Virus record (IMG/VR): IMGVR_UViG_3300045988_174260
Reading direction: 5' to 3' (one strand)
DNA: 40,094 nucleotides
From: a virus
The notes under the pieces were generated by a model. That model was not told where the DNA came from. It made no database searches and saw only the letters and a list, made by a program, of their open reading frames with translations. This document shows positions 3,595-28,364 of this stretch, piece by piece. Numbering within the stretch: the stretch's first letter is position 1; the number at the start of each line of letters is the position of its first letter. A program made the translations under genes and the position numbers.

Positions 3595-3834
3595 TTATTT
3601 TATTCTTTTCTTCATGCCTTTTACTAACTCGCTCGCCCGTTTAGAGACGTTATCCTTAGTTCCTACGACAAAGGTTTGCCAACCGCAATTCATGCACCCG
3701 TATTCATAACTTCCCTTAGGGTTCTGCAATGTCTCATAAACCAAAACGTCCATCGGAAGCCGGCAAAATGGGCATCGCAACTTTTTAAATTTCTCTTGTT
3801 TCTTTTTTCCCATGTTTTTTGTTTTTTCTCTCAA
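3595..3834 (-). CDS. Small zinc-ribbon protein and first gene of the leftward operon. Possible nucleic-acid-binding regulator.
   Basis: Two Cys pairs, CPFC and CMNC, are spaced about 26 aa apart. Both termini are basic. Confidence 0.6.
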   Translation of the reverse strand: MREKTKNMGKKKQEKFKKLRCPFCRLPMDVLVYETLQNPKGSYEYGCMNCGWQTFVVGTKDNVSKRASELVKGMKKRIK

Positions 3835-3877
3835 GGGGTCTTTCTCTATTCTTCCTTCCGTCCCCTTTCATGTTTTT

Positions 3878-3905
3878 ATTCTATCTTTTTTCCCTCATAA
3901 GTCAA
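3878..3905 (-). promoter_or_regulatory. Sigma70-like promoter candidate for the leftward operon: TTGACT-N16-TAGAAT on the minus strand.
   Basis: The reverse complement of 3900-3905 is TTGACT and that of 3878-3883 is TAGAAT. The spacer is 16 nt. It lies about 45 nt upstream of ATG 3834. Relevance depends on the host, which may not use sigma70-type consensus promoters. Confidence 0.3.
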
Positions 3906-3975
3906 CAACTTTTATTTCTTTTTTTCTCAATTAGCAAGTTTTTTTCTCTCTCCCTCTAACCTCTTGTCAAACTGG

Positions 3976-4055
3976 TTTTTCCTCTTTCTCTTCCCTCCTC
4001 TTCCCTCCTCTTTCGCCTCCCTCCTCCCTCGGGGGGGGGCCTTTAGGGGGGGGGG
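3976..4055. repeat. Low-complexity, structure-prone tract. A 55-nt polypyrimidine run (one purine) contains TTCCCTCCTC twice. It is followed directly by G9, CCTTTA and G10.
   Basis: Read directly. 3976-4030 is all C/T except g4014. G9 is at 4031-4039 and G10 at 4046-4055. Confidence 0.9.
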
Positions 4056-4939
4056 CTACTCCTAACTCCATCGGATTTCTCCATCCTTTTTCTCGTTGCG
4101 GGTTCTTACCTCTTCCCGCTCCTCTTCGCTCTCTTGACCTTTCCATCGGTCAGGAGGGCGTAAGGGGGGATAAGCGGGGGAGTTAAACCCCGGCCGGGAC
4201 GAACCAGTTTGCCCTCTTCCTTAAAAATGGTTTCTCCCATAGTGGACCCTCTTTTGCCATTTTTACGTGTTTTTTTAGGCGGATCCGTCATAAGTAGCAA
4301 ACTGTTAGAGGCTAGCGAATTTTAAGAAAACCTGTGTTCCTAGGGCTTGCCAAAAATCGGGTTTTGTGCATGTTTCATGTTTATTTTCTCTAGATTGTCT
4401 CGCTCTTGAGTGTTTTTTTTGTAGAGCCTCGGCGATTCGGTGCGTGCTTTGAGCGGCCTTCAAACTGGCTCAAAAGCGTACCGATTCCGTTGCATTTGGG
4501 TGCCTTCTGCCTGCTTCTGCTTGTGTGCGCACCGACAATCTTCATAACTCGTTGACTGTCTATCATACTTCGCATAACACACATAATGCCAAATAGGGCA
4601 CATTTGAGGACAATCCCGAATATCGCGCTACAATGGGCCTAGCGCGCGCCGCATATCTGCCATGAGTAATGTATAGGCCCATCCTCTAAAAAGCCCGTGT
4701 GCGCAATCCTCGCAAGCCGTTTTTCGGGCAAATCGTAGTAATTAGAATAATTATTGAGGTTTTGCCCACTTTAGGCCATGTTGCGGCGTTGCTTCGGAGC
4801 CACCTAGCCATGAGGGACTGCAAGCCCGTCAGCACCGCACCACCCCTAGGTGCTTCTTGCTAGGACGTCCCTACAGGCGGGAGGCGGGGAAAAATCGCCG
4901 GGCGTTTCGCGCTGGACAAAGAAGGTATCACCCTGCATA

Positions 4940-5401
4940 ATGAGGGAAAAGGGAGAAGAGAAAGAGAAGAAAGAAATGGCGAGAAGAAGAGGAGACGTAG
5001 AGATGAACGTGAAATTAGTGAGAGAGTTGGTGGAAGAAGTGAGGGGGGAATTGGAGCGAGGGGAGGTGAGGACGGTAGAGGAGGCGTTATCGAAGCGAGG
5101 AGTGAGCCGGAAGCTGTTTAGGGAGATGGGGGGAATAGAGGAGTGGAAGGGAGAGAGGAGGAGAGGCGAGAGAGGAGGAGAGGAGCGGGAAGAGGAAGAG
5201 GAAATGGGGAAAGAGGAAATGGGGAAGTTTTTAAGTAGAGTGATAAGAGGGAGGGAGCTAGGGATGGGGGGAAAGGAGAAGATGAGTGCGGTAGGGTTGT
5301 ATATGAGGTTGAAGGGATGGGACAAGGTGAAAGAGGAGAGGGAGGAGCTGGTAGGAGAGGAGATGAGAGAGCTGCTGAAAAAAGACAAAGAAAAGAGTTG
5401 A
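4940..5401 (+). CDS. Highly charged E/R/K/G-rich protein (153 aa) with a possible helix-turn-helix.
   Basis: The ORF track gives 4850..5401. I moved the start to ATG 4940, where the purine-rich coding composition begins. A possible HTH is TVEEALSKRGVSRKLFRE. The frame choice is uncertain because stop codons are rare in all + frames here. Confidence 0.45.
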   Translation: MREKGEEKEKKEMARRRGDVEMNVKLVRELVEEVRGELERGEVRTVEEALSKRGVSRKLFREMGGIEEWKGERRRGERGGEEREEEEEMGKEEMGKFLSRVIRGRELGMGGKEKMSAVGLYMRLKGWDKVKEEREELVGEEMRELLKKDKEKS

Positions 5402-5436
5402 TGAAAGAGGAGGAGGAGAGATAAACTAAAGAGGAG

Positions 5437-6078
5437 ATGAGAAAAGGATTGGACGAAGTAAAGATAAGGAAAGAAGAGCTGGAACATGGCTTTTTGAGGG
5501 GGGTGAAGGAGATGGTGAGGCAGAAGGTGGAGATGGGGTTAATGCCATGGGGGCGGCGGGTATTTTATCCGAAGATGGTATTGAGGGCGAGGCCGCAGAA
5601 GTTGAGGGATTTTTTGATAGAGGAGGAGGTATGGGAGTTGCAGGAATGGAGCAAGGATTCATTGGAGAGCAATCCTGAGCGGCACCATTTGTACGAATGC
5701 GGAGGGAGGTATTATATGGGATTGTACTTTAAGAGTACGAGGGGGCGGAGCATAAGGAGGAAGCTAAGTTTAGGGACAAGGGAATTGGAAGAGGCGAAAG
5801 AGAGGAGGGACGAGTTTTATAAAGAGTGGAGAGGGAAGGGATTGAAATGGTATATGGCAGACGGGGCGAAATGGAATATGAAGTTACCGGGAGTGCCGGA
5901 GGTAGGAGAGTTGAGCAAATTAGACAAAAGGGCGCGGAAGGAGACGGAAGAGGCGGCGGTACAGGCGTTGAAGGAAGCGCGGGAGAGTTGGAAGAGGAGG
6001 AGGTGGGAGCAAGTGAGGAAGGAGGAGTATTGGGAGGCAGAGGAGAAGAGGAGCCGGAGTTTAAGGAAATGGAAATAG
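5437..6078 (+). CDS. Protein with an integrase Arm-type/AP2-like DNA-binding motif and an E/R/K-rich C-terminal helix. It has no recombinase catalytic domain.
   Basis: HHLYECGGRYYMGLYFKSTRGRSIRRKLSLGTRELEEAKERRDEF resembles the lambda Int N-terminal arm-binding pattern (LY..nGyY.yr...g....LG......A). The ORF is only 213 aa. Confidence 0.5.
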   Translation: MRKGLDEVKIRKEELEHGFLRGVKEMVRQKVEMGLMPWGRRVFYPKMVLRARPQKLRDFLIEEEVWELQEWSKDSLESNPERHHLYECGGRYYMGLYFKSTRGRSIRRKLSLGTRELEEAKERRDEFYKEWRGKGLKWYMADGAKWNMKLPGVPEVGELSKLDKRARKETEEAAVQALKEARESWKRRRWEQVRKEEYWEAEEKRSRSLRKWK

Positions 6079-6089
6079 GAGGTAAGGAG

Positions 6090-6287
6090 ATGGAAAAAGA
6101 AGTAGGAATAATGGTAAAGTTTGGGAAAGGAAAGGTAATGGAACTGCATTTGTTTCCGAACAAGGAGGCAATGAGGAAGTGGCGAGGAGAGGACAGCGAG
6201 CAAGACGCAGAGGGGGAGTACCGGGAGTGGAGCGTACCGTTGGAGGTGATAGAGGACTTATGGGCGGCGGCGATGGGAGAGGAATAA
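6090..6287 (+). CDS. Small hypothetical protein (65 aa).
   Basis: This is the distal part of track ORF 5826..6287. The proximal 250 nt overlap the 5437..6078 CDS in another frame. ATGs at 6069, 6090 and 6111 are all possible starts. Confidence 0.35.
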   Translation: MEKEVGIMVKFGKGKVMELHLFPNKEAMRKWRGEDSEQDAEGEYREWSVPLEVIEDLWAAAMGEE

Positions 6288-6311
6288 AAAATTAGAATAA
6301 TAATAAAAAGT

Positions 6312-6878
6312 ATGAAAATAATCGTAGACATAGGGCATGCGCGGAACACAGGAGCGCGAGGGAACGGGCTGGAAGAGCACGCAGTAAGCGAGGAGATAAG
6401 CAAAGAGTTGGTGAGGGAGTTAAAGGCGGCAGGGTATGAGGTAGTTGAGTTGGACTTTCCGCACCTTAGTAACGCGAAGGACTTGGAAGCGACGATAAAA
6501 GAGGCGAATCGGATGGGTTCGGATATAGGAATATCGTTGCACTGCGACAGTGCAAGTCATTGGGTAGGAGGGGAAGAAGAGGCGAACCCTAAGCCGCATG
6601 GAGGGCATGTGTGCTACTATCCTGGGAGCAGTAAGGGGAGGAAGTTGGCAGAGGCGGTAGGAGTGCGTCTTAGCGGGCTATTGCCTGGGCGAGCAGAGGC
6701 AGTGGTAGGGAGGAAGGACTTGGCGGTATTGAGGCGAACAAGGCCGGTATGGATATTGTGTGAGTGTGGATTTATAACGAATCCGGGAGATGCGGAGGTG
6801 ATGAGGGAGCATCCGGAGAAGATAGCGAGGGCGATAAGCGAAGGAGTGAAGGATTATTTGAAATATGCAAGAGATTGA
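6312..6878 (+). CDS. N-acetylmuramoyl-L-alanine amidase (Amidase_3-type), the endolysin.
   Basis: KIIVDIGHARNTGARG...EE, GISLHCDSA and WILCECGFITNPGDAEVM match the Amidase_3 pattern (iviDpGHGg.d.GA...E, fiSiH.Na, vLvE.GFisN..d). Confidence 0.8.
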   Translation: MKIIVDIGHARNTGARGNGLEEHAVSEEISKELVRELKAAGYEVVELDFPHLSNAKDLEATIKEANRMGSDIGISLHCDSASHWVGGEEEANPKPHGGHVCYYPGSSKGRKLAEAVGVRLSGLLPGRAEAVVGRKDLAVLRRTRPVWILCECGFITNPGDAEVMREHPEKIARAISEGVKDYLKYARD

Positions 6879-7356
6879 TAAAGAGGGAGTTGGAGAGCTT
6901 GTGCACAGCATTGCGCACGGGGACAAGTGGGAGGAGGTTGAGGACAGGAAGAGTTGTTGCGTATGGGTAATGAGGAGCAAGGACAAGTTTCTTGTGAGGG
7001 AGGGGGTATTAAAGAAATGGCCGAAAAGGGGCTGGAAGGGGCGAGCATTAAGCAAAGGAGGGAAATGCTATGCGCAATCGGCAGACAGCATATTGAAGGA
7101 GGCAGAGGTAGAATGGGAAAGGAAGCCGGAGTATGCGCACATGTACTATAGCGGGATGCTGGGAGGAAAGGCGGCGAAAGACGCGACGTGTTTTTTAGAG
7201 GAAGCCAGAGTATTTAAGATGCCATTGCCGAGGGGGAGGTATAACAGCGATGCGTGGGAGTTTGTAAGGTGCCGTCTTGTAGAGGAAGTGGTAGAGAAGC
7301 CGATGGACGACGAAATGGACATTTGGTTGAAGTACAGGAGGGACAAATGGTTTTAA
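6865..7356 (+). CDS. Hypothetical protein. Small terminase subunit candidate by position only.
   Basis: A 163-aa ORF immediately upstream of TerL. Its stop overlaps the TerL start region. No motif recognised. Confidence 0.35.
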   Translation: MQEIDKEGVGELVHSIAHGDKWEEVEDRKSCCVWVMRSKDKFLVREGVLKKWPKRGWKGRALSKGGKCYAQSADSILKEAEVEWERKPEYAHMYYSGMLGGKAAKDATCFLEEARVFKMPLPRGRYNSDAWEFVRCRLVEEVVEKPMDDEMDIWLKYRRDKWF

Positions 7357-8927
7357 GTGAAATAATAGAGTTGCTGAAAGACCCGATGTGGCGAATATCC
7401 CATTTGTATGAGATAAAATTGACGGATGGGAACATCATTCCTTATAAGCCGAGGAAGTTTCAGGAGGAGCTTCACAGGGCCTGTTACTGTGAGGGGAAGA
7501 GGAGGTTTTTAATACCTAAGAGTAGGCGGCAGGGTTGCTCTACGGCGATTGGAGTGATGATGGCTGACATGGCGGCGTTTGAGGAGGGGTGGAAGCTGGC
7601 TTTGGTGGACAGGACGTTAGGAGACGCGACGGAAAAGCTTACGGACATTGTGAGGGTAGCGTTGGACAGCTTGAAGAGGAAATTGCCTGGGATGTTCGAC
7701 ATAAGTTACAGCAAATCAAAGATAAACGTTAAGATGGTAGGAAGGAGGTCGAGCGAGATAGTTGGGGGTAAATATTTTCGAGGCAGTGGTCTTGGATTTG
7801 CGCACATATCCGAGCTTGGTACGATTGCGACCAGTGAGCCGAAGCGAGCTGCTGAAATCGTCAACGGCACATTCCCTGCGGCTAAGGATGGCTTTATCTT
7901 TGTGGAGACGACCGTACGAGGGGGGAAGCGAGGGGTATTCTATGAGAACGTGATGAATGCGCTAAGCGTGCCGGAGGGGAAGCGAGGTGAGAAAGATTTC
8001 CATGTAGTGTTTTTGCCGTGGTGGAGCGACGAGAATAATATATCGGAGGGGGTGGAGGAGATAACGCCAGCTACGGAGAGCTACTTTGAGACGCTTAGGA
8101 GCAAGAGCGGGATTGTCGTGACGGAGGCGCAAAAGAGGTGGTGGCAACAGGCCAAGCGGCAACATGGCGTATCAATGAATGAAGAGTACCCGTCCACCTT
8201 GGAAGAGGCTTTTGAGGTCCCTATGGAGGGGGCTATCTTGGAGGCGGTGTTGGACAGGGCCATGCAGGAGGGGGCTTTCAGGAACTTGGTTTACGATAAA
8301 ACGAAGCCGTGTTATTGCACATGGGATTTGGGTGCGCCCCTGAATACGATTAACCTTGTGTTTCAGTTGGACGGCCCCTTTATTAACGTCCTTGAGCTGG
8401 ACAGTGGTTTGCATGCGAGCGAGCGCGTAGCAGAGCGTGTAACGAGGCTTAAAAGCAAATATCCGACCTTACAGGCGAACTTCCTTCCGCATGACGGCGG
8501 GTATATGACGGACACAGGGATGACACAGGCGCAAATGTGGCAGGAGGCAGGGTTGCCGGGCATCCAGTTGTTGCCCAAATCGAAAGACAAATGGATTGGC
8601 ATCAATTACCTTTTAGGGATGTTCAACATGTTTCGGTTTGACACCAACGGTACGAGCAAAGCGTACAGTTACTGGTTGTCCTACAGGTGCAAGCCGGAGG
8701 TGGGAGAGGGAGGCGTGTTTAAGAATGAGATTGTACATGACAACGCATCCCATTGGGCAGACCCGTTGAGGTATGTTGCAGAGGCGAGGATGAACAACCT
8801 GTTGACGGCAGGAGTTGTAACGCAGGACAGCAAAGCCGGGATAACCTGTACCTTTGGGAAATATCATCGTGAGCAAAATGTTGGACATAACTGGCGGCGG
8901 GGGTTTGAGCATACTTGCCGCATCTGA
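7347..8927 (+). CDS. terL: Terminase large subunit (526 aa).
   Basis: PKSRRQGCST is a terminase-type Walker A-like motif (K.RQ.G.S/T). GFAHISE is Walker B-like. The C-terminal half has nuclease-like acidic motifs (CTWDLG, PHDGG, HWADPLRY). It sits just upstream of the portal. I moved the start from 7254 to ATG 7347, which overlaps the end of the upstream ORF. Confidence 0.85.
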   Translation: MVLSEIIELLKDPMWRISHLYEIKLTDGNIIPYKPRKFQEELHRACYCEGKRRFLIPKSRRQGCSTAIGVMMADMAAFEEGWKLALVDRTLGDATEKLTDIVRVALDSLKRKLPGMFDISYSKSKINVKMVGRRSSEIVGGKYFRGSGLGFAHISELGTIATSEPKRAAEIVNGTFPAAKDGFIFVETTVRGGKRGVFYENVMNALSVPEGKRGEKDFHVVFLPWWSDENNISEGVEEITPATESYFETLRSKSGIVVTEAQKRWWQQAKRQHGVSMNEEYPSTLEEAFEVPMEGAILEAVLDRAMQEGAFRNLVYDKTKPCYCTWDLGAPLNTINLVFQLDGPFINVLELDSGLHASERVAERVTRLKSKYPTLQANFLPHDGGYMTDTGMTQAQMWQEAGLPGIQLLPKSKDKWIGINYLLGMFNMFRFDTNGTSKAYSYWLSYRCKPEVGEGGVFKNEIVHDNASHWADPLRYVAEARMNNLLTAGVVTQDSKAGITCTFGKYHREQNVGHNWRRGFEHTCRI

Positions 8928-8952
8928 TGAGGCGTTAAGGCGTGACGCCGGC

Positions 8953-9324
8953 ATGGGACTAAGTGAGGCATGGAAGCTTCATGAGGGAGGCGTGCGGCTT
9001 TATACCGGAAACGGTCTTGTGCTGGGCCACTATTATCGCATCGAACCGGACAATGTACGGGTATGGGGCGAGGCGTCGGAGTTCTTGAGGACAAGACATA
9101 TAGAGGAGGCGTCGGTGAGCTATGAGGAGGCCAATGGCTTCTTTTTCTTTTTAGGGGTTGGAGACTATGTTGGTTTTTTAAGGCACTTGCAATTAAGCCC
9201 GCACATGCAATTTGGTAGTGGACATAGGCACGGGAAGCTGTATGTTTACTCACGTAAGGAGTTAGACTTATATATTAAACTTAAATTAAGGAGGAGTAAA
9301 TGTCAGGCGTTGGACAGGCAGTAG
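8953..9324 (+). CDS. Hypothetical protein (123 aa).
   Basis: The track ORF is 8854..9324. I chose ATG 8953 as the first start after the TerL stop at 8927. Confidence 0.45.
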   Translation: MGLSEAWKLHEGGVRLYTGNGLVLGHYYRIEPDNVRVWGEASEFLRTRHIEEASVSYEEANGFFFFLGVGDYVGFLRHLQLSPHMQFGSGHRHGKLYVYSRKELDLYIKLKLRRSKCQALDRQ

Positions 9325-9596
9325 GAGCAGTTGTCGGGACGGTAATCGCCCCCGGTGTAGGAACAATTATCGGCTCATCTATTGGTGGGCTGACAGACAG
9401 AGCAATCAACAAGAATAAAGACAAGGGGTCATCCGCCCCGGAAGCTCCAAAGCCCGTAGAGCAATACGAAACTCAACAGGAAGCAGTTCGTAGCAAAAAT
9501 GAGGCGAACAGGCGTCGGAGTTCTTTTTCAAATACCTTTGTTGCCTCTAGAGGGATTGGAACAAGTGGCGTAGGCAAAAGCTTTTTAGGCCAATAA
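9300..9596 (+). CDS. Glycine-zipper membrane-active small protein (98 aa).
   Basis: The N-terminus GQAVGAVVGTVIAPGVGTIIGSSIGG contains tandem GxxxG motifs. It has the only strong Shine-Dalgarno site in the late region (AAGGAGGAG 4 nt upstream of the ATG). Confidence 0.65.
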   Translation: MSGVGQAVGAVVGTVIAPGVGTIIGSSIGGLTDRAINKNKDKGSSAPEAPKPVEQYETQQEAVRSKNEANRRRSSFSNTFVASRGIGTSGVGKSFLGQ

Positions 9597-9597
9597 T

Positions 9598-11223
9598 ATG
9601 CTGTACAACAATCAGTTACCAAAGCAGAAGAGGGAACAGCTCTATTCGTATAGACAACGCTATGTATCTAACTGGCAACGAGTTGCGGAGTACGTAGAGC
9701 CGGACCGGAGGTTTAACCTGAACGGGGCTGTGCAGGAGGCTACTCCTAACAATGAGGCCTATATTGACACCACCCTTGAGCGAGCCTTGAGGCTGAACGC
9801 AACAGGCCAGCATGAGCTTGTGATGCCCAAAGCCAGCGAATGGTTTACGTTTACTCCACAAGCTAAGGCGGCAGATGCTGACGAAGTAAGTTCTACTATT
9901 GAGGACGAGTACGCCCTGACGGCAAGGGTAGTGTCCATGTTCATGAGGAACAGCAACCTGCATACAGCCAGCGAGCTTTTCTTCTGGGACAGGGCGGCTT
10001 ATGGCATTGGGGCATTTTGGGCAGAGTGGGACGCGAAGCAAAAGGGGTTTAATTTTTATTCTATACCAGTAGGGACATTCATGGTGGACAAAGACAAATT
10101 TGGCCGGATGAATATGTTTTGCTGGGACGATTGGATGAGGAACCAAGACATTGTGGCTACGTTCCCTGAGGGTAACTTGCCGCAAACTGTTAAGGATAAG
10201 TATATTGCAAACTCTAACAGTCCGGACAACTACCTTGTGTTCCACCTGTTGGAGCGAGTGGAGCGCACCGGAGATGAAGGACTTGTGAGGCGAGCCAAAG
10301 GAAAAGAGTGGGTGCTTCGTTCGGTGTATGACGCTACAGGAGACGTATTGCTTGAGCAATTCTTTGAGCAATGCCCCGTTATCTGTTGCAACTGTTTTGA
10401 TTTGCCTAACTCCCCGTATGGATATGGGTTTGGGAAGGTTTCATTGGCAGACCAGATTGAATTGGTTAATTGCCTTAAGGCTTTGGCAGAGGCGGCCCAA
10501 CAGAAGATTTTCCCGCCGATGCTTGTTCCGGAAGGATTTCAGGGTAATATCGGATATGGAGCGGGCGAGGTAACGACCTTTAACCCGTTGAACATTCAGG
10601 CAAGGCCGTCGCCCCTGTTCCAGCAGTCAGCCCAAACTTCCGATACCCAATGGCAAATTGAGCGTTTTGAGCGTGTCATCAATGAGGCGTGCGACGTTAA
10701 TTTGTTCATGCCGTTGTTGCAGGTGAAAGACCCGCAATACATGAAGGCCACGGTAGCGCAGATGATTGAATCCTACTCTGCCCGCATCAGCTCTACGGCG
10801 TACACGAGGCTGATTGAGCAATTCTTGCGGCCATTGGTTGACTTCTGTTATAATACGCTGGTAGCTCAAGGGTATATTCGTCCCCTGCGTGAGTATCACA
10901 TCCAGTTCTGCACGCCGTTCCAGATTCTTTTGGATAGGCATCAGCCGACGTTGTTCACAGAGTTCCTGCAAACGGTTGTCATTCCTCTGTCTCAAATTGA
11001 CCCGACGGTTCTTGATTCATTGGATGCTAACTATATTTTCCGAAGAAGCATGCTTGATATTGGATTGTCGCCCAAGTATGCTAGGCCTCAAGCTAAGGTG
11101 AACCAGATGCGAAAGGAAAGGGAGGCCGCCCAAAACGAAGCCAACCAGATGGCAAATGCCAAGACATTCTCCGAAGTGCAGAAGAACCTCGGCGCGGCAT
11201 CCAAAGACATGAATATCATTTAA
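9598..11223 (+). CDS. Portal (head-to-tail connector) protein, podovirus T7 gp8-like in size.
   Basis: 541 aa. It lies between TerL and the scaffold and capsid genes. The C-terminal tail is charged and Q/A-rich, as in T7-type connectors. Confidence 0.8.
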   Translation: MLYNNQLPKQKREQLYSYRQRYVSNWQRVAEYVEPDRRFNLNGAVQEATPNNEAYIDTTLERALRLNATGQHELVMPKASEWFTFTPQAKAADADEVSSTIEDEYALTARVVSMFMRNSNLHTASELFFWDRAAYGIGAFWAEWDAKQKGFNFYSIPVGTFMVDKDKFGRMNMFCWDDWMRNQDIVATFPEGNLPQTVKDKYIANSNSPDNYLVFHLLERVERTGDEGLVRRAKGKEWVLRSVYDATGDVLLEQFFEQCPVICCNCFDLPNSPYGYGFGKVSLADQIELVNCLKALAEAAQQKIFPPMLVPEGFQGNIGYGAGEVTTFNPLNIQARPSPLFQQSAQTSDTQWQIERFERVINEACDVNLFMPLLQVKDPQYMKATVAQMIESYSARISSTAYTRLIEQFLRPLVDFCYNTLVAQGYIRPLREYHIQFCTPFQILLDRHQPTLFTEFLQTVVIPLSQIDPTVLDSLDANYIFRRSMLDIGLSPKYARPQAKVNQMRKEREAAQNEANQMANAKTFSEVQKNLGAASKDMNII

Positions 11224-20269: not shown

Positions 20270-22222
20270 ATGGCGACCTACGACACAAGAGATATTAGGA
20301 TGGGTGTTACCGGTTCGAATAAGGAGGGGTTGCTTACTTCTCCGTCTAACAGGTACTTGCGCTCTACTTACGATACGGCGAGATATGTTCCTATCGGCAA
20401 CGAGTTTGACAAGGAAAGCCGGGAAAGGGAGCTGGGTAATCTAGGAGAAGGTTTGTCCCTATGGGCCAAAGCACAGGCCGAGGTGGAGACGACTAACGAC
20501 AGTATCCAGTCGAGGCGCATGGCGGCAGAGTACATGGAAGCCTCAACGCAGGTTTTCAACCAGTTGCAAAACGACCCAAGCACGATGAACAACCCTGCCG
20601 TGTGGCTGGACGTGTACACGGAGGAAATGACATCAAGGATTGCGGAGATAAATAATAATTATTCTAAATCTTTTTATGTTGGTCGCAATCAACTCATGTC
20701 TAACGAGCAACTTAATTTGCTGTTAAAAAAGGAGAAGAATAATGTGGCCCTGATGGCGGCAGACCGGGTATCAAAAATGGCTGCTGACGAGACAAACGCC
20801 TCCCTGAAAGTGGCAATAGCTAACAGGGATTTCGGACTGGCTAAGGAGATAAACCAAAGTCCCTACTTAACTCCTGCCCAAAAGATTTTGAATGAGAATG
20901 AAATCACTGGTGCTCAAACACAGGATATAATTCAGCAGTCAGTCTTGAGAGACCCGTGGGGCGTTGTAGAGGAAGTGAACAGGGATGGGTCCGTACAACG
21001 TCGAGAACTCACCTATGAGCAACAGCAGTACGCAATGAATCAAGCGCAGGGGCAGATAAGCACGACTCAAAAGCAATCGTACGATTCTCTCGTACAGAAG
21101 TTTTTGTTTAACCCGGAAGAGTTTGACTTGAACGTGGCAAACAAGTTGCTGAAAAACAACCATTTGACTACCCAGCAATACGTTAATCTTCTGAACATGA
21201 AGAAAAAAATGAGCGCCAAGGTAGAGCCGACGCCGATGCAGTTTAAGGCAATGTCGGAATGGGCAACGAAGCTGTCAGAGGGATATGCCAAGGAATCTCC
21301 CGAAGGCAAAGCAAATATCCTTTCGCAAGCCGAACGTCTTTTTGACAGCATGAATTTCAGCACCAGCGACAAGAATGCTCTGGTTAAGCTGGTAACGCAA
21401 AAGATTTCCCCTGAAACGTTCAATCAGGCTGACAAGTTGGTAGAGAAGTTTTGGGATAACGGCCAACTACCTCTGACCAAGACAGCGGATTACACCGGAA
21501 CTCAAGGAGGAACTACTCCGATTTATTTGACGGAGGGAGAGTTTAATACGCAGTTCAAAGAGAGGAAGAACCAGTTTTTCTTAGACAAAAGCAGGACATA
21601 CCTAGACCCGAAAACGGCAAAAGAACGTTTTGCTGTGATGGAGTATGTGCCGGACTCGAACAATCTGTTCCTGCAAGAAAAGATAAAAAGCGAAGTTCGT
21701 TCCGTCCTTTCTGATAAGATTGCTGAATATAGGGCAGAACACAATGGGAAATCTCCTACCGGACAAGAGCTTTATGAGCTTGTTTTTTTCGCACAAGAAG
21801 AGGCGTTCTCCCGGAATAATATCAGCAGTATTGACCCATTATCTTCTGCCTCTGTTTATCCTTCTGGACAGCAAGACAGAGACGAAAGAAAGGCGACATT
21901 TATTCCGAACAACGTTAGAGTGTCGGCTATATCGAATAAAGCTTCTATAGATATTCCGACTAATGGTGCTTTTATTGTTTGGGCCGGAAGTAACTCTTTC
22001 ATTACAAACGAGAAAGACTACTTGAGCATATATAAACGGGCCGGGGCGCCCCCTCAAGGATTTATCGTAGCAGATGAATCTTTCCTCCAAGCTCCACACA
22101 AAGATTTAATGGATGTGCAAGCTATGATTTCGGCCAAAGCGATAGCGGCGAAAGCTGGATTAGATGCACAAGGAGAGCAGGGAATTTATTGTGCATTGCT
22201 TTCCTATTGGAATAATTTATAA
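20270..22222 (+). CDS. Internal virion/ejection protein candidate (650 aa).
   Basis: It occupies the T7 gp15-like position. Its start abuts the upstream stop (TAAATG). No catalytic motif recognised. Confidence 0.55.
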   Translation: MATYDTRDIRMGVTGSNKEGLLTSPSNRYLRSTYDTARYVPIGNEFDKESRERELGNLGEGLSLWAKAQAEVETTNDSIQSRRMAAEYMEASTQVFNQLQNDPSTMNNPAVWLDVYTEEMTSRIAEINNNYSKSFYVGRNQLMSNEQLNLLLKKEKNNVALMAADRVSKMAADETNASLKVAIANRDFGLAKEINQSPYLTPAQKILNENEITGAQTQDIIQQSVLRDPWGVVEEVNRDGSVQRRELTYEQQQYAMNQAQGQISTTQKQSYDSLVQKFLFNPEEFDLNVANKLLKNNHLTTQQYVNLLNMKKKMSAKVEPTPMQFKAMSEWATKLSEGYAKESPEGKANILSQAERLFDSMNFSTSDKNALVKLVTQKISPETFNQADKLVEKFWDNGQLPLTKTADYTGTQGGTTPIYLTEGEFNTQFKERKNQFFLDKSRTYLDPKTAKERFAVMEYVPDSNNLFLQEKIKSEVRSVLSDKIAEYRAEHNGKSPTGQELYELVFFAQEEAFSRNNISSIDPLSSASVYPSGQQDRDERKATFIPNNVRVSAISNKASIDIPTNGAFIVWAGSNSFITNEKDYLSIYKRAGAPPQGFIVADESFLQAPHKDLMDVQAMISAKAIAAKAGLDAQGEQGIYCALLSYWNNL

Positions 22223-22229
22223 ACAAATC

Positions 22230-25200
22230 ATGGAAGAGCTTTCAGAACAACCCGAAGATTCTATCCTGTTGGATGAAATAAAGAAAATGAATTCGGGCCT
22301 CGCTTCTAATAAGGAGCAACCTGAAATAACAGAAGAGGATTTAGAAGCAAATCCTCAAGCTTACTCTTCTGAACAAATTGAAGGGGTTTTAAGAAACAAG
22401 AGAAGTATTCGCACAAAGCTTGACGATTATTTAAGGATGTCGTCTAGCTTGCTTCCTACTACTCCGCGAGAAGCCTTAGATGCCGTAGGGACATTGCGTG
22501 AGGAACTGCAAGCAAATGGTATAGACCCGGAGTATGAGAGGTATCGTGAGAAGATAAAAAGAAACGAAGATATAGTTTATTCGGTTACTAGGTATATCAA
22601 TCCAACAACAGGCTTGTTTGGGGATGTTCCTGCACAAGATGTAACAAACAATAAGCTGGAAAAAATACTTAGTGCTGAGCAAATTAGGGATTTCAATAAT
22701 GCCCCGCAGTTTATGCGAGACAAATATGTTTTCAATCGCATTGTTGAAAACTTTTTCCCGGAAGGGGAGATGGATAAAGGGTATGCACTAGAACTCCTGA
22801 AAAAGCATTATCAAACCGACTCAATGCACGGAGTTGTCAGCAAATACGCTCAAGAGCTTCAAAGGAACAAGGATGAGGAGACAGCATACAATGAAGCCTC
22901 TACCAGATTTTTCGATTCCTTTATAGAAACAGGAGGCGATTACCAGAAAGCAATCGACAGCTTGGAAGGCAATCTAAACCTGTATGCGGAAAACATTTTC
23001 AACCAAGAACCTGCGCTTAAATACATTTACCAGCGTGCGTATAACTCCGTCTCATGGATTAAAGATGAATACATAGAAAGCGGAGAGCTGGATTGGGACA
23101 AGATGGCAGACAGGTTGTTGAAGCTTGGGGAAGGAGAGACGTTCTCTCTAGCCATTCAGATGCTTCCCTACATGTTGCCCAAAGACGACAGGACTTGGCT
23201 AACCCAAGCCATAGACGACACCGCCTCTGATGTCTCCCGCTTTGCTAGGCTCATGGTTGACGGAGGAGGTGATAGCGCCCAAGCAGAACGCCTTGCGTTG
23301 GCTATCCAGCAGGAATATCGTCAGGGCCGAGACATGCCTACATCGTGGATAGGGAGAGCTTTTAAGGCGGCGACAGACCAAGTTCCGAAGGTGGCGGCAG
23401 TAACCGGAAGCTCTCTTTTGGCTTCACCGGGTGGGCCTGTAGCAATGGCCGCCACAGGAACAGCTGTCGGCTCAATGGTGTATGGTTCAACGGTAGGTCT
23501 TGAGGCATATAGGACGAATTCTTCTAGGGCAGGAGCATTGACATATGGTGTTACTGTTGGGGCCTTGGAAGGTCTCCTTGAAAACGTAACTCTTGGCGTT
23601 GGTGCTTTGGCCTCCAAAGGTATTAAGGTGGCAGAGGCAGGTAGGAAAATGGCCTCTGTTGCCGGAAGAGTTCCCGCTACCGTAAGAGGTGCGGCGGCTG
23701 GTGCTTTGTCTGAATATACCCAAGAAGTCATTGCTGACCCAATTTATGTTGGATTGGAGAATGTAATGCGCTCTGCGGGGTTTGAGCTTACCCAGCAAAA
23801 CACCCTTAAAAACTGGTGGGAAACATTGGACTTCACATCCCCTGAACTATTGGGGGCTACAGCCATTCTTGGAGGCTCCATTGGTGCTGTTGGGGGCTAT
23901 CAAGCTAACCACCTCATCAACCGAGTAGGAAGAAGCGCTTCGGCTCTTCAAGCTTATGGTGTACCCGAATCGGAAGCTGTGGCTATTGCCGAAATGCCAG
24001 ACGGCAAGGAGCGCACAAACAGGCTTATATCGGCCCTTCGCAATAACCGGGTAAGCCCCGACGTGCAAATAACAAACCAGCAAGCGGGGATATTCCTGAA
24101 CTTTTTAGCTAAGAATGCAGAGAGGTTTAAGGATGTTGAGCTGATGCCGGAGATATCCGACAACGGGGACGGAACCTTTAATATTGTTGAGAGAGACCCG
24201 GTAAGTGGAGCTGAAAAAGTAACCACAGTAACAGACGAAATCGCAGGGACGTTCATGTCTCAAGCGTTGCAGTCAAATCCGGGATTTATCAGGGCATTAA
24301 ATATTTTCGCCCAAGAAGAGATAGAGTCAGGGGTGGGCAAGGAGACGAAGATAAAGAGCTATACTCCTGACGAACTCCGAGCAAAAATCCAATCCACAGA
24401 AGACAACAATGCAACTATAGCACGACTTAGGGCTTTGGCTGTAATTAACCAAGACCCGGAATTGTTGCAGAGTTTTCGTGATGGGAAAGTAAGTATTGAA
24501 GATGTAGCAAATGAGCTGGAAATTGTATCTGCATATAGAGATGGCACGATTGCTGTTGCGAGGGGTGAAGCGAATCCTCTCAATATTCTCGAAGAAATAA
24601 TTCATGCCCGCGCCATATCTGATTTGGAGAGCGGCGTTATTTCCAGAGATGTTATTGAAACACAGGTAAGGAATTACTTGGAATTCTTGGGCCGCAGTAG
24701 CGAAGAAATAGGGGACTTGAGCAATGACGTTCTGTTGCAGGAGCATCTTGCCAATATGGGGAAAGCTTTAGCTACAACGCCAGAGTTGTTTTCCTCCATG
24801 CCGGGGAATGTTCAGACAATTTTGGAGTGGCAGAAAGACGCCATTGCGGAAGTCGGCAATATTTTTGAAGAAGGCAATCTGATAAGAGAAGCCATTGAGC
24901 AGGGAGTTGTCTCTTCCGATTTTGTTAAATGGTCTAAATCGTTGGCGACAATGGCCGAGCGTCGTGATGGACAGGACGTTGGCGAGCTTATCAATGGAGC
25001 AACGGGCGAAAACATTTTGCCGATGGGGAAAACTCTTCCTTCTGCGAGGAGGAGAGGAACAATAGATGTAACTCCTTCTATTAAAACCATTAACGAAGCT
25101 ATCAAGAGCATTGTTGAAGGGACATCGGAAAGGGCAGTAGGACAGCTTCATAAATTGCAGAGAAGCATGACCAAGCTTTCCGAAAGGTTTTCACAAGGCA

Positions 25201-28200
25201 AGCTAACAGAGAGGGGACAGCAGAAAGCATTGCTGAACTCTGTCCTCTCTATCGCTAATGCTATGGCTTCGGGGAGCCGGAAGTTTATTTCTAACCAACT
25301 TGCTGACAGGCTGGCTAATCCGAAAAGCAATGAGGCCTTCAATGCGGACATGAAAACAGCTCTTGATGCGACCGTTAGAGCGTTGAATGAAAGGGCAGAG
25401 GAAGCAAGCCGAAAGCAACTGGAACGTCTTATTCAGGACGAAATAAAGAGGCGTGTTGAACAAGCTGACGCTAAAGCTAAGAAGGATTTCAGCAGGGAAA
25501 TGAAGTTCCTGCGTAGTCTTATCTCGAAAGAAATCCGCAAGGACATTAAGGAAGAAAGAGCAGAGGCGGCGGCAGAGAAGAAGCTTGCTACTAAAAGCAT
25601 AGAGAGCTTGCGGAGGTTAGCGGAAAATGCCTTCAAAGACACTAAAGGACGTTCGCGTTCTTTAGACGCACAAGCTAGAGAGGAAACTATGGACGCTCTG
25701 ACGGTTATGGCTATGTCTCCCGAAGAGGTTGCAGTCCAGCTGGAAACCTTGGATAGCACCATAGATGAGCTTCAAAACCAGAAGGCATCAGAAGAGAATG
25801 CTCTAGAGTTGGAAAACTTGGAAAACCAAAAGAACCTCCTCGAGGTATTTGGGAGTGCGTTGTATCGGGAAAGGATGCCCAACGGAAGGTACAAATACGC
25901 ACTTAATGCTCAACAGCTCGCAGAAGCGGTTAAGACACTGAAAGAGCTACAGCGAGAAGGACGGCTTCGGAGAAAGAAAGTTAATGAGCAGATTGAGCGT
26001 TTCTATAACAAATTCAACGCAGTCATCAACGAGCGGGTAGGAGGGGAGAATAATCGTGATGCCCTTAGAAAGGCTGTATTGGAGCGAGACCAAAGAGGCA
26101 CAGGCTTTTTGGACAGAATCTTTACAGGATTCATGAGCCTTCAACAGCTCCTTGAAGTTCTCTCTTCGATGAAAGACTTTAAGGATATAGGAACGTTCTT
26201 GCAAAATAATGTTCAATACGCAGAACAACAGCGAGGAGTAGAGAAGGAAAAGGCTACGTCTCATGCCGTTCGTATCATGCGGGGAATGATGGAGAGAGCG
26301 GGGCAGAATTCGCCTAGGTATTTTGACCAGCTTTCCACCAAAACCATATCCTTCATGGGCCACGAATTAACCAAGTATGGCCTAGTCAAAGTCTATCAGA
26401 CGTTAAGGGAAAAGGACGGCTTAGACGTATTGCGGGAAAACCTTGGCAACAAGGGCATGGATTTTGGCAATTATCGAAAATATCAGCAAGAGCTTGAGGC
26501 CTTAAACAAAGGCCTTGCTGATGGCGCCTTAACTTCCGAAGAGTATGACGCCAATGCGGAAGTTATTGAAAACGAATACCTTGAGAGAAAAGAAAAGGAT
26601 ATTTCCAAGCTTTTGGAAATCCTTGGTCCGGACGGCCTGTATTTAGCGGACGAACTGCAAAACCTGTATCGAGAAAAAGGTGAGAAGCTTCGGGCGTTCA
26701 TGGCAGAGAACTATGGACAAACGGTAATTCTAGATGACTACTATACGCCCCGCAACATCGCGGCTTACAACACCATGCAAGAAGGCGACATGGAAAGTTA
26801 CAGCAAGGGCCACATTTCAAGAACAGGATTACCCTCTTACGCGAAGCATAGAAACACGCCGTCTTCCGCAGCCTTGTCTTTGGAGATAAACCCTCTTGGA
26901 GAGTATCTTCGGTACAGCTCTATCATGGAAGGGTGGATGACAGCCTACGAACTAGTCAACTTCAACAACCGAGTTTGGGCTAATCCTACCACCAACGCAC
27001 AGTTACAGAAATTATTAGGCCCTGCCAATTATGAGACGGCCAATAAAGACCTTTATTACTTCATCAATGAAGGCCGTGTGTATGCGCAAAAGAGTGTGTT
27101 GGCAGAGGTGATGGGGAAAGTGTTTCAAGTGTTAGCTAAGACTAGGATTGCCTTCTCTTTAGCTTCTTTGGTGCGCTCTGGGGCGGCTATATTCAACCCT
27201 CTTGTGGGAAGCAATTTCTCATCAATGGAAATCATTAGAGGGTTTGCAGGCATCGCTTCTGGGAACTATAAGGGGTTCTCGATTGAAGAGCTTAGGGACT
27301 TGGAAGCCATGAAGGAGCGCAAATACAGAGGATGGGAAGACCGTGTGCTGGCTGAAAAAGCATTAAGCATACCCCTGAAAAAACAAGCGCAATGGGGATA
27401 TTGGCAGGAAGCCGGCATGAGCGGGTTAATTGGTTTCGACTGGTGGAGTATTTCAAGGGCTAACATGCTAACGTCTCACATGCTTGCAAAGCGTGGTTTG
27501 TCACATGAACAGATAAGGTGGGAGCTTAATAAGAATATCTATCAGACAGCACAGCCTTTATCAACTTCGGCCAAAGCTTCGCACTTGTTAGGCGGTAGTG
27601 CTTTTGAGGCATCCCAATTCTTATTCCTTTCCGACGTAATGAACAAATTCGGCATGGTTGTAATGCAGGGCAAAAAGGGCGATTGGCTAGGCGCATTCCG
27701 AGTTTATACTATTGCGGCTATAGCTAATGGCCTTTTCAATGGTTTGGCAACTGCTTTGTTTGGAGACAAGGATAAAGAGGATGAATTTGTGGACAACCTC
27801 TTCTTCACAGCCGTCCTAAGCCCGATAGTTTCAGTCCCGATGTTTGGAGGCTTTGCGGAATGGGTATTGTCCGAATTGAGCGGAAAACAATATTCGCTTG
27901 GACGGGCTGACATGGCTGACCTTTCAAGCACGATTCAGAACCTAGTCAGAAGTATTGTAAAAACATACGAAACAGTTTCAGAGAAATGGGATAAGGAAGG
28001 AGCTTTGACTTTCAATGATTACGCCGATATGGTTTCTTACTTAGGAAAGAACATTGGTAGTGTGGCGACTGTTTCAACTGCTTTTGGTTCTTCTGGACAG
28101 AGCGTAACTAAATCTCTGGAAATGGTAGGCGCATTGTCGAATGCCCTTTCTCAAGTGAAGACGACCGCTCAAAAGGCACTCCCGGAGCCAATCAACCCGC

Positions 28201-28364
28201 TTTATACGGAGAAGGAGGAAATGAAGGAAAGAGCGCGACAGCTCAAGAAAGCTAAGAGAGAAGCGAAGAGGGAAAACGGCGAAAGGTCAGCAACCTACAG
28301 AAAACTTTCTAGGGAATTAAGACAAATAAACAAACTACTCAAGATTAGAGGCTGGGAAGACTAG
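22230..28364 (+). CDS. Giant internal virion/ejection protein (2,044 aa) in the T7 gp16-like position.
   Basis: I moved the start to ATG 22230, just after the upstream stop at 22222. Gly/Ala-rich hydrophobic segments lie near residues 400-520. A long charged coiled-coil region lies near residues 1030-1200. Hydrophobic segments lie near the C-terminus (IAAIANGLFNGLATALFG, AVLSPIVSVPMFGGF). Confidence 0.6.
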   Translation: MEELSEQPEDSILLDEIKKMNSGLASNKEQPEITEEDLEANPQAYSSEQIEGVLRNKRSIRTKLDDYLRMSSSLLPTTPREALDAVGTLREELQANGIDPEYERYREKIKRNEDIVYSVTRYINPTTGLFGDVPAQDVTNNKLEKILSAEQIRDFNNAPQFMRDKYVFNRIVENFFPEGEMDKGYALELLKKHYQTDSMHGVVSKYAQELQRNKDEETAYNEASTRFFDSFIETGGDYQKAIDSLEGNLNLYAENIFNQEPALKYIYQRAYNSVSWIKDEYIESGELDWDKMADRLLKLGEGETFSLAIQMLPYMLPKDDRTWLTQAIDDTASDVSRFARLMVDGGGDSAQAERLALAIQQEYRQGRDMPTSWIGRAFKAATDQVPKVAAVTGSSLLASPGGPVAMAATGTAVGSMVYGSTVGLEAYRTNSSRAGALTYGVTVGALEGLLENVTLGVGALASKGIKVAEAGRKMASVAGRVPATVRGAAAGALSEYTQEVIADPIYVGLENVMRSAGFELTQQNTLKNWWETLDFTSPELLGATAILGGSIGAVGGYQANHLINRVGRSASALQAYGVPESEAVAIAEMPDGKERTNRLISALRNNRVSPDVQITNQQAGIFLNFLAKNAERFKDVELMPEISDNGDGTFNIVERDPVSGAEKVTTVTDEIAGTFMSQALQSNPGFIRALNIFAQEEIESGVGKETKIKSYTPDELRAKIQSTEDNNATIARLRALAVINQDPELLQSFRDGKVSIEDVANELEIVSAYRDGTIAVARGEANPLNILEEIIHARAISDLESGVISRDVIETQVRNYLEFLGRSSEEIGDLSNDVLLQEHLANMGKALATTPELFSSMPGNVQTILEWQKDAIAEVGNIFEEGNLIREAIEQGVVSSDFVKWSKSLATMAERRDGQDVGELINGATGENILPMGKTLPSARRRGTIDVTPSIKTINEAIKSIVEGTSERAVGQLHKLQRSMTKLSERFSQGKLTERGQQKALLNSVLSIANAMASGSRKFISNQLADRLANPKSNEAFNADMKTALDATVRALNERAEEASRKQLERLIQDEIKRRVEQADAKAKKDFSREMKFLRSLISKEIRKDIKEERAEAAAEKKLATKSIESLRRLAENAFKDTKGRSRSLDAQAREETMDALTVMAMSPEEVAVQLETLDSTIDELQNQKASEENALELENLENQKNLLEVFGSALYRERMPNGRYKYALNAQQLAEAVKTLKELQREGRLRRKKVNEQIERFYNKFNAVINERVGGENNRDALRKAVLERDQRGTGFLDRIFTGFMSLQQLLEVLSSMKDFKDIGTFLQNNVQYAEQQRGVEKEKATSHAVRIMRGMMERAGQNSPRYFDQLSTKTISFMGHELTKYGLVKVYQTLREKDGLDVLRENLGNKGMDFGNYRKYQQELEALNKGLADGALTSEEYDANAEVIENEYLERKEKDISKLLEILGPDGLYLADELQNLYREKGEKLRAFMAENYGQTVILDDYYTPRNIAAYNTMQEGDMESYSKGHISRTGLPSYAKHRNTPSSAALSLEINPLGEYLRYSSIMEGWMTAYELVNFNNRVWANPTTNAQLQKLLGPANYETANKDLYYFINEGRVYAQKSVLAEVMGKVFQVLAKTRIAFSLASLVRSGAAIFNPLVGSNFSSMEIIRGFAGIASGNYKGFSIEELRDLEAMKERKYRGWEDRVLAEKALSIPLKKQAQWGYWQEAGMSGLIGFDWWSISRANMLTSHMLAKRGLSHEQIRWELNKNIYQTAQPLSTSAKASHLLGGSAFEASQFLFLSDVMNKFGMVVMQGKKGDWLGAFRVYTIAAIANGLFNGLATALFGDKDKEDEFVDNLFFTAVLSPIVSVPMFGGFAEWVLSELSGKQYSLGRADMADLSSTIQNLVRSIVKTYETVSEKWDKEGALTFNDYADMVSYLGKNIGSVATVSTAFGSSGQSVTKSLEMVGALSNALSQVKTTAQKALPEPINPLYTEKEEMKERARQLKKAKREAKRENGERSATYRKLSRELRQINKLLKIRGWED

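Follow-up and report, generated by a model that had tools for sequence, protein, structure and literature searches.

A purine-loaded, cytosine-poor block at the head of the late operon in a probable Akkermansia phage

By Szybalski's transcription-direction rule and Forsdyke's purine loading, the mRNA-synonymous strand of DNA is purine-rich, and high purine loading has classically been tied to thermophily. Here we describe a purine-loaded, cytosine-poor block of 2.4 kb (positions 4940-7350) in the IMG/VR virus record IMGVR_UViG_3300045988_174260, a stretch of 40,094 nucleotides that was analysed as a whole and is called the window below. The block opens the rightward (late) operon, immediately upstream of terL, the gene of the large terminase subunit. 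It is a local, graded and position-dependent extreme of the ordinary purine rule. The rule is shared by both divergent gene modules of the genome outside the block (54.5% and 54.3% sense-strand purine), from which the block differs in magnitude and localization. The thermophily link is inapplicable to a gut phage. Thermophile-type purine loading was rejected as an explanation, since Human Microbiome Project material is among the samples and the relatives have links to Akkermansia.

Several other described systems can be set beside the block. In the phage systems lambda N/nut, lambda Q/qut, HK022 put RNA and P4 Psu, a protein factor or a folded RNA modifies the RNA polymerase or inhibits Rho. 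Rho loads onto ribosome-free, C-rich, G-poor, unstructured RNA, where YC dinucleotides (Y, pyrimidine) are contacted. CpG-island promoters, immunoglobulin switch regions, ColE1 RNA II and T4 ori(uvsY) are GC-skewed regions that form R-loops. Vertebrate mitochondrial DNA has strand-compositional gradients that result from the time spent single-stranded.

A sequence-only reading of the window, which our analysis followed up, knew of no described function for such a block. This has to be revised, since a coding-strand purine bias has been shown experimentally to shield transcripts from Rho-dependent termination (Dierksheide, Taggart, Johnson and Li, Nat Microbiol 2026, PMC13323073). An excess of C over G, and T-richness, trigger Rho; synonymous pyrimidine enrichment turns a gene into a Rho target, and purine recoding rescues the expression of foreign genes (PMC13323073). 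Sense-strand purine bias, including wobble purines, was explained there as an evolutionary response to Rho, and phages were named as facing this barrier (PMC13323073). The block resembles that bias in its sense purine excess, in the wobble purines of its fourfold-degenerate codon families, in its enrichment of Glu and other purine-encoded residues, in its pyrimidine-rich antisense strand, and in the absence of C>G stretches and T-richness. It differs in scale. The described bias is mild and genome-wide, at ~54% purine in phyla with runaway transcription (the rest of this phage also has 54.5%), whereas the block is a local, graded extreme of 73-83% over the promoter-proximal 2.4 kb, and the probable host phylum is outside the runaway list. 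In the literature on Akkermansia podophages or phage purine loading, no description of such a block was found.

The window is a circular assembly and corresponds to a complete ~40-kb phage genome. Minus-strand genes run from 3834 to 246 and continue from 40076 to 33443, and the plus-strand module occupies ~4976-33442. The coordinates of the block genes and of other features are collected in Table 1.

The composition of the block was calculated first for its most extreme part. Positions 4941-5400 contained 36.1% A, 4.3% C, 47.0% G and 12.6% T, that is, 83.0% purine, in agreement with earlier hand counts (~4% C, 12-13% T, 82-83% purine). The whole block had 73.4% purine and 9.9% C, against 52.8% and 19.7% in the window. 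Compared with the rest of the strand, C was down by 0.11 and T by 0.08, and G was up by 0.16. In 200-nt sliding windows the block averaged 0.733 purine versus 0.511 ± 0.067 outside, and such windows marked it as the outlier that had been suspected (z ~3.3 for the mean, ~5 for the maximum). Gene by gene, the sense-strand purine fraction was 0.82 in orfA, 0.74 in both orfB and orfC, 0.68 in the amidase gene, 0.69 in orfE and 0.60 in terL. The corresponding z-scores against the 33 other genes (0.546 ± 0.044) were 6.2, 4.3, 4.3, 2.9, 3.2 and 1.1. The C-minus-G skew changed by kilobase from the promoter through -0.72, -0.54, -0.41, -0.25, -0.17, -0.11, -0.06 and -0.04. The bias thus fades through terL (59.5% purine) and the skew ends at about zero near the capsid gene, as the sequence-only reading had it.

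The bias goes beyond protein composition, which had likewise been claimed. At fourfold-degenerate sites, the purine fraction was 0.97 in orfA, 0.96 in orfB, 1.00 in orfC, 0.92 in the amidase gene and 0.90 in orfE, so that 90-100% of these silent sites are purines in the five block genes versus ~50% elsewhere. Outside the block, terL had 0.66, the portal gene 0.59, the capsid gene 0.42 and the other plus-strand genes 0.51. C occupied 0.00-0.05 of the fourfold sites across the block genes (0.00 in the amidase gene) versus 0.22 elsewhere. The purine-ending codons noticed earlier in the amidase gene (AGG, TTG, GAG, AAG, GGG/GGA) were confirmed by counting: AGG encodes 7 of 14 Arg, TTG 10 of 15 Leu, GAG 15 of 20 Glu and AAG 8 of 12 Lys, GGR 19 of 20 Gly (R, purine), and GCR all 19 Ala. 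The other, less constrained open reading frames (ORFs) of the block have indeed drifted in their protein sequences, with E, R, K and G making up 51% of residues. Where a codon must end in a pyrimidine, the C:T ratio was ~45:55 in the block, as elsewhere; the pressure in this genome hence favours purines and is not directed specifically against C.

Searches with TerL gave 20 IMG/VR loci and further contigs, which were grouped by TerL identity to the window: A1 (~100%, L001-3), A2 (90-94%, L004-12 and L019), C (70%, L060), an unnamed group (67%, L049), B (66%, L013-18, the same phages as L036-38) and D (48-50%, L057 and L058). A broader IMG/VR search with a TerL alignment added one new locus only. 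All genomes with at least 65% TerL identity had a purine-rich or C-poor block immediately upstream of terL, 1.0-2.7 kb long and with 2-8% C. The genes within it differ. The orfB and orfC genes are limited to clade A; clade B carries one unrelated ORF of 165 aa, and clade C carries two of 85 aa. The fourfold C fraction was at most 0.07 in all of these non-homologous head genes.

The amidase gene occurs in different contexts. At the operon head, in clades A and C, its fourfold sites had 0.80-0.92 purine and 0-0.09 C. The clade B amidase, 55% identical, is encoded at the tail of the same operon, with 0.48-0.51 purine and 0.21-0.24 C. In a Mu-like prophage of Akkermansia, the gene of a 59% identical amidase had a host-like 0.25 purine and 0.66 C. 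The bias tracks operon position rather than gene lineage.

These comparisons also bear on a mosaic origin, in which the block would have come from another phage lineage with genome-wide purine loading. Gene exchange does take place, as shown by the clade-specific head genes. However, the block is conserved at the same site in all relatives at 65-100% TerL identity and is no imported island, the bias is continuous into the vertically inherited terL, and the amidase homologues are ordinary in other contexts. A donor of such composition did not appear either, the DNA-level search of GenBank phages having returned no match. We regard an import as most improbable.

The 5' edge of the block coincides with a predicted sigma-70-like promoter. 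Its consensus match by itself was not significant, with four promoter sites found where 2.7 were expected. Both hexamers, as well as the AAGAAGGTATCAC spacer, are kept in the 100% and 91% clades, and in the 66% clade (L014) a related sequence was recognised by eye. The start site is predicted at ~4947-4949, precisely where the purine run sets in, and we infer from the sequence that the promoter is functional. In co-linear relatives, the skew jumps at the intergenic region that precedes the late genes, with no strand switch. In clade A2 (91%), the leader between promoter and orfA is untranslated, variable in length through indels (49-213 nt), 83-96% purine and 0-6% C. Its composition is conserved while its sequence varies.

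The composition of the block is being maintained. In ten A2 genomes, the stationary composition derived from substitutions was 0.65-0.71 purine and 0.08 C, versus 0.71 and 0.11 observed. Among rare variants of the block and terL in these genomes, the minor allele was a pyrimidine in 48 cases versus 26, a mild excess; in downstream genes the numbers were 91 versus 92.

A composition at equilibrium is also what strand-asymmetric mutation would give. Through heavy transcription, R-loops or asymmetric replication, the non-template strand at the promoter or a displaced strand at an origin would remain single-stranded for long, and directional damage such as C deamination would leave a neutral gradient. 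The monotonic strand asymmetry is reminiscent of mitochondrial DNA, the skew declines smoothly with distance from the promoter, and rare block variants included 13 C>T versus 4 T>C despite fewer C sites. Strong GC skew of either sign is also found in the phage family, as seen in loci L057, L058, L064, L065 and L066. Over most of the 21.5 kb that was examined, clade D is rich in G+T (fourfold G 0.65-0.75, T ~0.2, A and C at most 0.09). This resembles the classical deamination signature, and the A+C-poor strand is again as in mitochondria. The coding-strand GC skew was +0.45 to +0.55 in clade D and +0.35 in a Luteolibacter prophage, and two Verrucomicrobiales prophages had C-rich coding strands with skews of -0.2 to -0.5.

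In the present genome, however, the shift is opposite to a deamination signature, with a depletion of T and an enrichment of A. Deamination would raise T, which here makes up 12-17% of the block and 0-0.08 of its fourfold sites. The net change is from C to G and from T to A, which requires strand-specific transversions, and we know of no single-strand damage signature that produces these. Furthermore, the 5' boundary is sharp and lies at the promoter, and leaders without sequence conservation retain the composition. Rare terL variants were purine-to-pyrimidine in 21 cases versus 8, as expected if pyrimidines are purged. We consider a mutational origin unlikely. Hypermutation of the APOBEC or deaminase type was ruled out for this genome by the depletion, instead of enrichment, of T.

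Our tentatively preferred explanation is selection against Rho loading sites in the leader and in the first genes, which are probably translated only weakly. The block would be the promoter-proximal portion of a single ~28-kb rightward late transcript, and selection on the nascent RNA would have purged pyrimidines, above all C, from the untranslated leader and the first genes. A few copies of the products of these genes (orfA, orfB, orfC, endolysin, orfE and terminase) would suffice. With thin translation, naked RNA would be exposed, and termination here would leave the whole structural operon unexpressed. Lacking pyrimidines, the transcript would offer Rho no loading site until the RNA polymerase got to the portal and capsid genes, which are heavily translated. 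In that case, the block would act in cis as a composition-based antitermination device and would be a local extreme of the anti-Rho coding-strand purine bias. The loss of RNA structure, the depletion of palindromes and the pyrimidine-rich antisense strand, an ideal Rho target, would be by-products.

The distribution of potential Rho sites is consistent with this proposal. From the start site at 4947, no 150-nt window has more C than G for 4.4 kb, and the first that does is at 9347. YC dinucleotides numbered 1.8 per 150 nt in the first kilobase, 12-17 further downstream and 45 on the antisense strand. The observed/expected ratio of TC was 0.33-0.50 in the blocks of three clades versus 0.93-0.95 elsewhere, and the maximum T fraction over the first 3 kb was 0.23-0.27. 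Low translation is indicated by codon endings, since the block avoids those of the capsid gene and those of host genes, in which C occupies 45% of fourfold sites; its codons are thus the least host-like. Both this low translation and the involvement of Rho are what we infer from composition. Avoidance of Rho would explain the location of the block, its promoter-coincident edge, the silent-site signal, the purine-only leaders and the decay toward the heavily translated capsid gene. The ordinary amidase gene at the operon tail also fits, because termination there costs nothing downstream. Selection at the protein level cannot account for the silent-site bias, nor for leaders that are purine-rich yet variable in sequence.

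A wider version of the proposal is possible, and we put it forward with some doubt. It describes a positional 'purine zone', in which any incoming head gene would be recoded, at silent and amino-acid-changing sites alike, until its RNA is nearly pyrimidine-free. This would hide the leader and the first genes from Rho, and perhaps also from pyrimidine-specific endoribonucleases, and would amount to passive antitermination with the purpose served by N, Q and put. The proposed purpose, to bring the polymerase through a very long operon despite Rho, and the site just downstream of the promoter are those of the phage antitermination systems. In contrast to N, Q and put, the protection would be passive and composition-based. 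No conserved folded RNA or box of the put or nut kind follows the promoter: the leader is unconserved, its folding energy is near zero, and it has no Rfam match. Pfam and PHROG scans of the window revealed no recognisable antiterminator protein.

Several observations weigh against a role of Rho avoidance. The PVC phyla, including Verrucomicrobiota, are not among the runaway-transcription phyla of PMC13323073 and so belong to its 'coupled' group. In that group a strong purine bias is not expected, which is a phylum-level prediction and not a measurement on Akkermansia (PMC13323073). The remaining late operon contains many C>G windows (20-58% of windows per kilobase), and protecting only the first kilobases further presupposes weak translation of the block genes. 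A physical or mutational gradient would also fit the smooth fall of the skew, which extends over several genes and ~8 kb. The distant relatives are not uniform, clade D being G+T-rich and not purine-rich and two prophages being C-rich. Finally, the polymorphism data do not separate selection from mutation bias.

Almost no stable mRNA structure had been predicted for the block from its low C content. This was true of the first ~0.5-0.6 kb of the transcript, where the minimum free energy was -5 to -13 kcal/mol per 150 nt versus -36 ± 7 elsewhere. It did not apply beyond: by 6450-6750, within the amidase gene, the folding energy was normal again (-42 to -43). Relative to shuffled sequences (z = -0.4), the low structure is what the composition predicts. 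By eye, in 25 nt upstream of each start, most genes starting outside 4940-9600 have no Shine-Dalgarno sequence and are A-rich. Strong AGGAG-like motifs before starts are found almost only within the purine block, where they may merely mirror the composition.

An unstructured, purine-rich mRNA could act at the level of translation, by easing ribosome loading in a Shine-Dalgarno-poor host; alternatively, purine-ending codons unlike those of the host could throttle or time the synthesis of terminase, lysin and regulators. The essentially unfolded first 0.5 kb, the A-rich and Shine-Dalgarno-poor upstream regions of most genes outside the block, and the codons that shun the host-preferred C endings and the pyrimidine endings of the capsid gene can all be read in this way. 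Initiation, however, requires ~30-50 nt of open RNA per start and not 2.4 kb, and the amidase gene folds normally although 92% of its fourfold sites are purines. Throttling by codons leaves the purine-only untranslated leaders unexplained, and there is no reason why functionally diverse genes should be treated alike. A translation-level cause appears rather improbable.

Of the proneness to R-loops and triplexes that had been suggested, that to R-loops is plausible. Directly downstream of the predicted promoter, the GC skew is 0.6-0.85 and G makes up 41-51%, and G-clusters (GGG or longer) number 3.1 per 100 nt in the block versus 1.1 elsewhere. The potential for triplexes or H-DNA is limited, with two purine runs of at least 20 nt (35 and 22 nt) and one canonical G-quadruplex motif in the block. 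G-quadruplexes or H-DNA were rejected as the main explanation, the canonical motifs and long perfect homopurine runs being too few.

Purine-rich RNA on a pyrimidine-rich DNA template forms an unusually stable hybrid, and the ColE1 and phage T4 origins use R-loops. A functional R-loop or other non-B DNA, with a G-rich transcript on its C-rich template, might prime replication, mark the start of packaging near the terminase genes, which lie in or adjoin the block, or hold the late promoter open. The G-rich non-template strand after the promoter, the enriched G-clusters and the fall of the skew with distance are as in known R-loop regions. Unlike these, the block is protein-coding and presumably translated, is rich in A as well as G, and greatly exceeds the R-loop origins of bacteria or phages in length. 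A primer or packaging signal takes tens to hundreds of bases, not a 2.4-4.4-kb gradient that reshapes five genes, and any translation of these genes would suppress R-loops through coupling. The scarcity of canonical G-quadruplex motifs and of long homopurine runs was noted above, and a better candidate for the origin is the 24-bp tandem array at the window ends, which resembles iterons. We judge a functional R-loop to be quite improbable as the reason for the block.

The window ends overlap by 55 nt inside this array, which shows that the assembly is circular and was broken within the repeats. The suggestion that the block might enter the cell or be packaged first found no support, as the break is ~4.9 kb away. 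Several related contigs seem to stop at about the same distance upstream of terL.

Recognition sites are depleted in the block, as had been anticipated. Six-base palindromes numbered 2 versus 11.4 ± 3.0, and four-base palindromes 47 versus 65.8 ± 6.6. Most characterised mRNA interferases cut pyrimidine-containing motifs. Evasion of nucleases would make use of both properties: a pyrimidine-poor RNA would escape toxin or abortive-infection endoribonucleases that cut at C or U, and the purine strand would be devoid of palindromic restriction sites. Shielding 6% of the genome is pointless, though, if the remainder can be cut. There is no sign in the circular assembly that the block enters the cell first, we know of no host nuclease of such specificity, and the graded decay would have no rationale. 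Such evasion is a very improbable main cause.

The host of the phage is probably Akkermansia, judging by sequence relationships. Among named cellular homologues of the amidase, the closest belong to Akkermansia and Akkermansiaceae, and clade D is located in a 244-kb contig of an uncultured Akkermansia metagenome-assembled genome. More distant TerL relatives are mostly in other Verrucomicrobiota genomes, with two in contigs labelled Rickettsiales and Alphaproteobacteria. TerL is only ~31% identical to that of isolated podophages (tblastn), and GenBank phages contain no close relative at the DNA level. The genome codes for a large terminase, a portal, an HK97-type capsid protein, tail proteins and a PD-(D/E)XK exonuclease. 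Two late-operon proteins, of 2066 aa (22164-28364) and 650 aa (20270-22222), had no Pfam or PHROG match; a sister clade has a 2029-aa counterpart of the former. A tRNA scan of the window gave no matches, and an Rfam scan none at gathering thresholds.

Among the block genes, orfA heads the block in all four clades, and its homologues have the C-terminal motif LS.IIRG..G..K..A..LYM.L.GW.K in common. Its start was set at 4976, because the ATG at 4940 overlaps the -10 hexamer. From position and conservation alone, orfA could be guessed to be the small terminase subunit. It had no Pfam, PHROG or PDB-sequence matches, and orthologues from three other clades had none in Pfam or PHROG. Its AlphaFold model had a confidence score (pLDDT) of 69.5, with no Foldseek match in PDB at E <0.4. 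The linker of orfA, encoded by GA-rich repeats, varies among relatives. Eleven homologues of orfB were found, all in contigs of up to ~40 kb; the gene was found in this phage lineage only. The protein had no Pfam or PHROG matches, and its model (pLDDT 56.6) had no Foldseek match in PDB at E <0.4; an integrase arm-type DNA-binding fold, considered for it at first, is likewise an unsupported guess. A profile search against PDB sequences returned noise only.

The amidase spans the full-length Amidase_3 domain. In L036-L038, a TnpB gene (OrfB_IS605, Cas12f-like; 8676-10004) lies directly upstream of the tail amidase gene, with a 4-nt overlap. OrfE, without Pfam or PHROG matches, is weakly similar to a 115-aa ORF that precedes terL in L060. 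The listed terL ORF begins at GTG 7254 and overlaps orfE; its start was placed at ATG 7347, overlapping the orfE stop (ATGGTTTTAA), because the protein starts in relatives match.

Stop codons had been described as rare in all three plus-strand frames, with stop-free shadow ORFs on the complementary strand. Compared with the non-coding frames of a control region, stops were rare on the minus strand (9-15 versus 21-61 per frame) and only moderately so on the plus strand (33, 36 and 46 versus 40-72). The complementary strand does carry shadow ORFs, of 213, 224 and 125 aa. These had no family matches and exist only because stop codons are rare on a pyrimidine strand.

Upstream of the late promoter, a second biased tract lies between the divergent promoters, upstream of a predicted leftward promoter at 3905-3878. 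Positions 3801-4000 have 80% purine on the minus strand. Among relatives, the sequence of the tract is not kept and its plus-strand CT composition is. The plus strand has two canonical G-quadruplex motifs, and the one outside the block lies next to this tract, in a conserved element with two G runs. In clade D (L058), a cluster of G runs occurs upstream of the late genes at ~8926-9040. Three noncoding islands (4541-4595, 4705-4775 and 4775-4900) look, by eye, more conserved than the adjacent genes. One of them holds TTATGCGAAGTA, which recurs in L058 at ~9055-9075, reversed relative to the late operon, and in one a GCCG-TTTTT-CGGC hairpin precedes the palindrome AATAATTATT. At 4775-4900, several predicted pairs are altered on both sides between sub-clades, which may mean a conserved structure.

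Table 1 Location and description of features in the window
Feature	Position	Strand	Description
24-bp tandem repeat array TTTTCTTCTCCATTGTTGTATCGG	1-157 and 40040-40094		6.5 + 2.3 copies; iteron-like; candidate replication origin
CT-rich (plus strand) tract	3906-4030	minus strand purine-rich	Between divergent promoters; 39-nt pure pyrimidine run at 3976-4014
Conserved element	4033-4056	+	Two G8-10 runs around CCTTTAGG; kept in all clade A relatives
Predicted sigma-70-like promoter	4913-4941	+	Rightward (late) operon; TGGACA, 17-nt spacer, CATAAT; consensus scan
Purine-only 5' leader	4942-4975	+	Unbroken 35-nt purine run at 4942-4976
orfA	4976-5401	+	141 aa; first late gene; helical, helix-turn-helix-like N-terminal part
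GA-rich tandem repeats	5137-5226	+	15-20 nt; encode low-complexity linker of orfA (GERRRGERGGEEREEEEEMGKEEMGK); Tandem Repeats Finder
orfB	5437-6078	+	213 aa; function unassigned
orfC	6090-6287	+	65 aa; counterpart is a 69-aa ORF in L009
N-acetylmuramoyl-L-alanine amidase gene	6312-6878	+	Endolysin; Pfam Amidase_3 1.7e-23; PHROG 435 endolysin 4e-36
orfE	6865-7356	+	163 aa; kept in L009
terL	7347-8927	+	Large terminase subunit; PHROG 2; tail of the gradient
Shadow ORF	4846-5487	-	213 aa; S/P/L/F-rich; antisense to block
Shadow ORF	5729-6403	-	224 aa; S/P/L/F-rich; antisense to block
Shadow ORF	6678-7055	-	125 aa; S/P/L/F-rich; antisense to block

Blocks of this kind have practical consequences. 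They mislead gene callers, as the antisense shadow ORFs of 213 and 224 aa illustrate, and they distort host prediction based on composition. The purine rule could inform the design of expression constructs for Akkermansia. If the mutational explanation is true, the gradient would report unusually asymmetric transcription or replication in these phages. If avoidance of Rho is the true cause, the block would clearly exemplify, in nature, how a virus can overcome polarity in a long operon with nothing but nucleotide composition. The degree to which codons and proteins can be distorted would be seen from the 90-100% purine at fourfold sites and from proteins of which E, R, K and G make up half. 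The amidase gene, in native and recoded versions placed first or last in an operon, would be a ready experimental handle. It would also extend the 2026 purine-bias model from genome averages in Bacillota to a sharp phage feature in a Gram-negative gut host.

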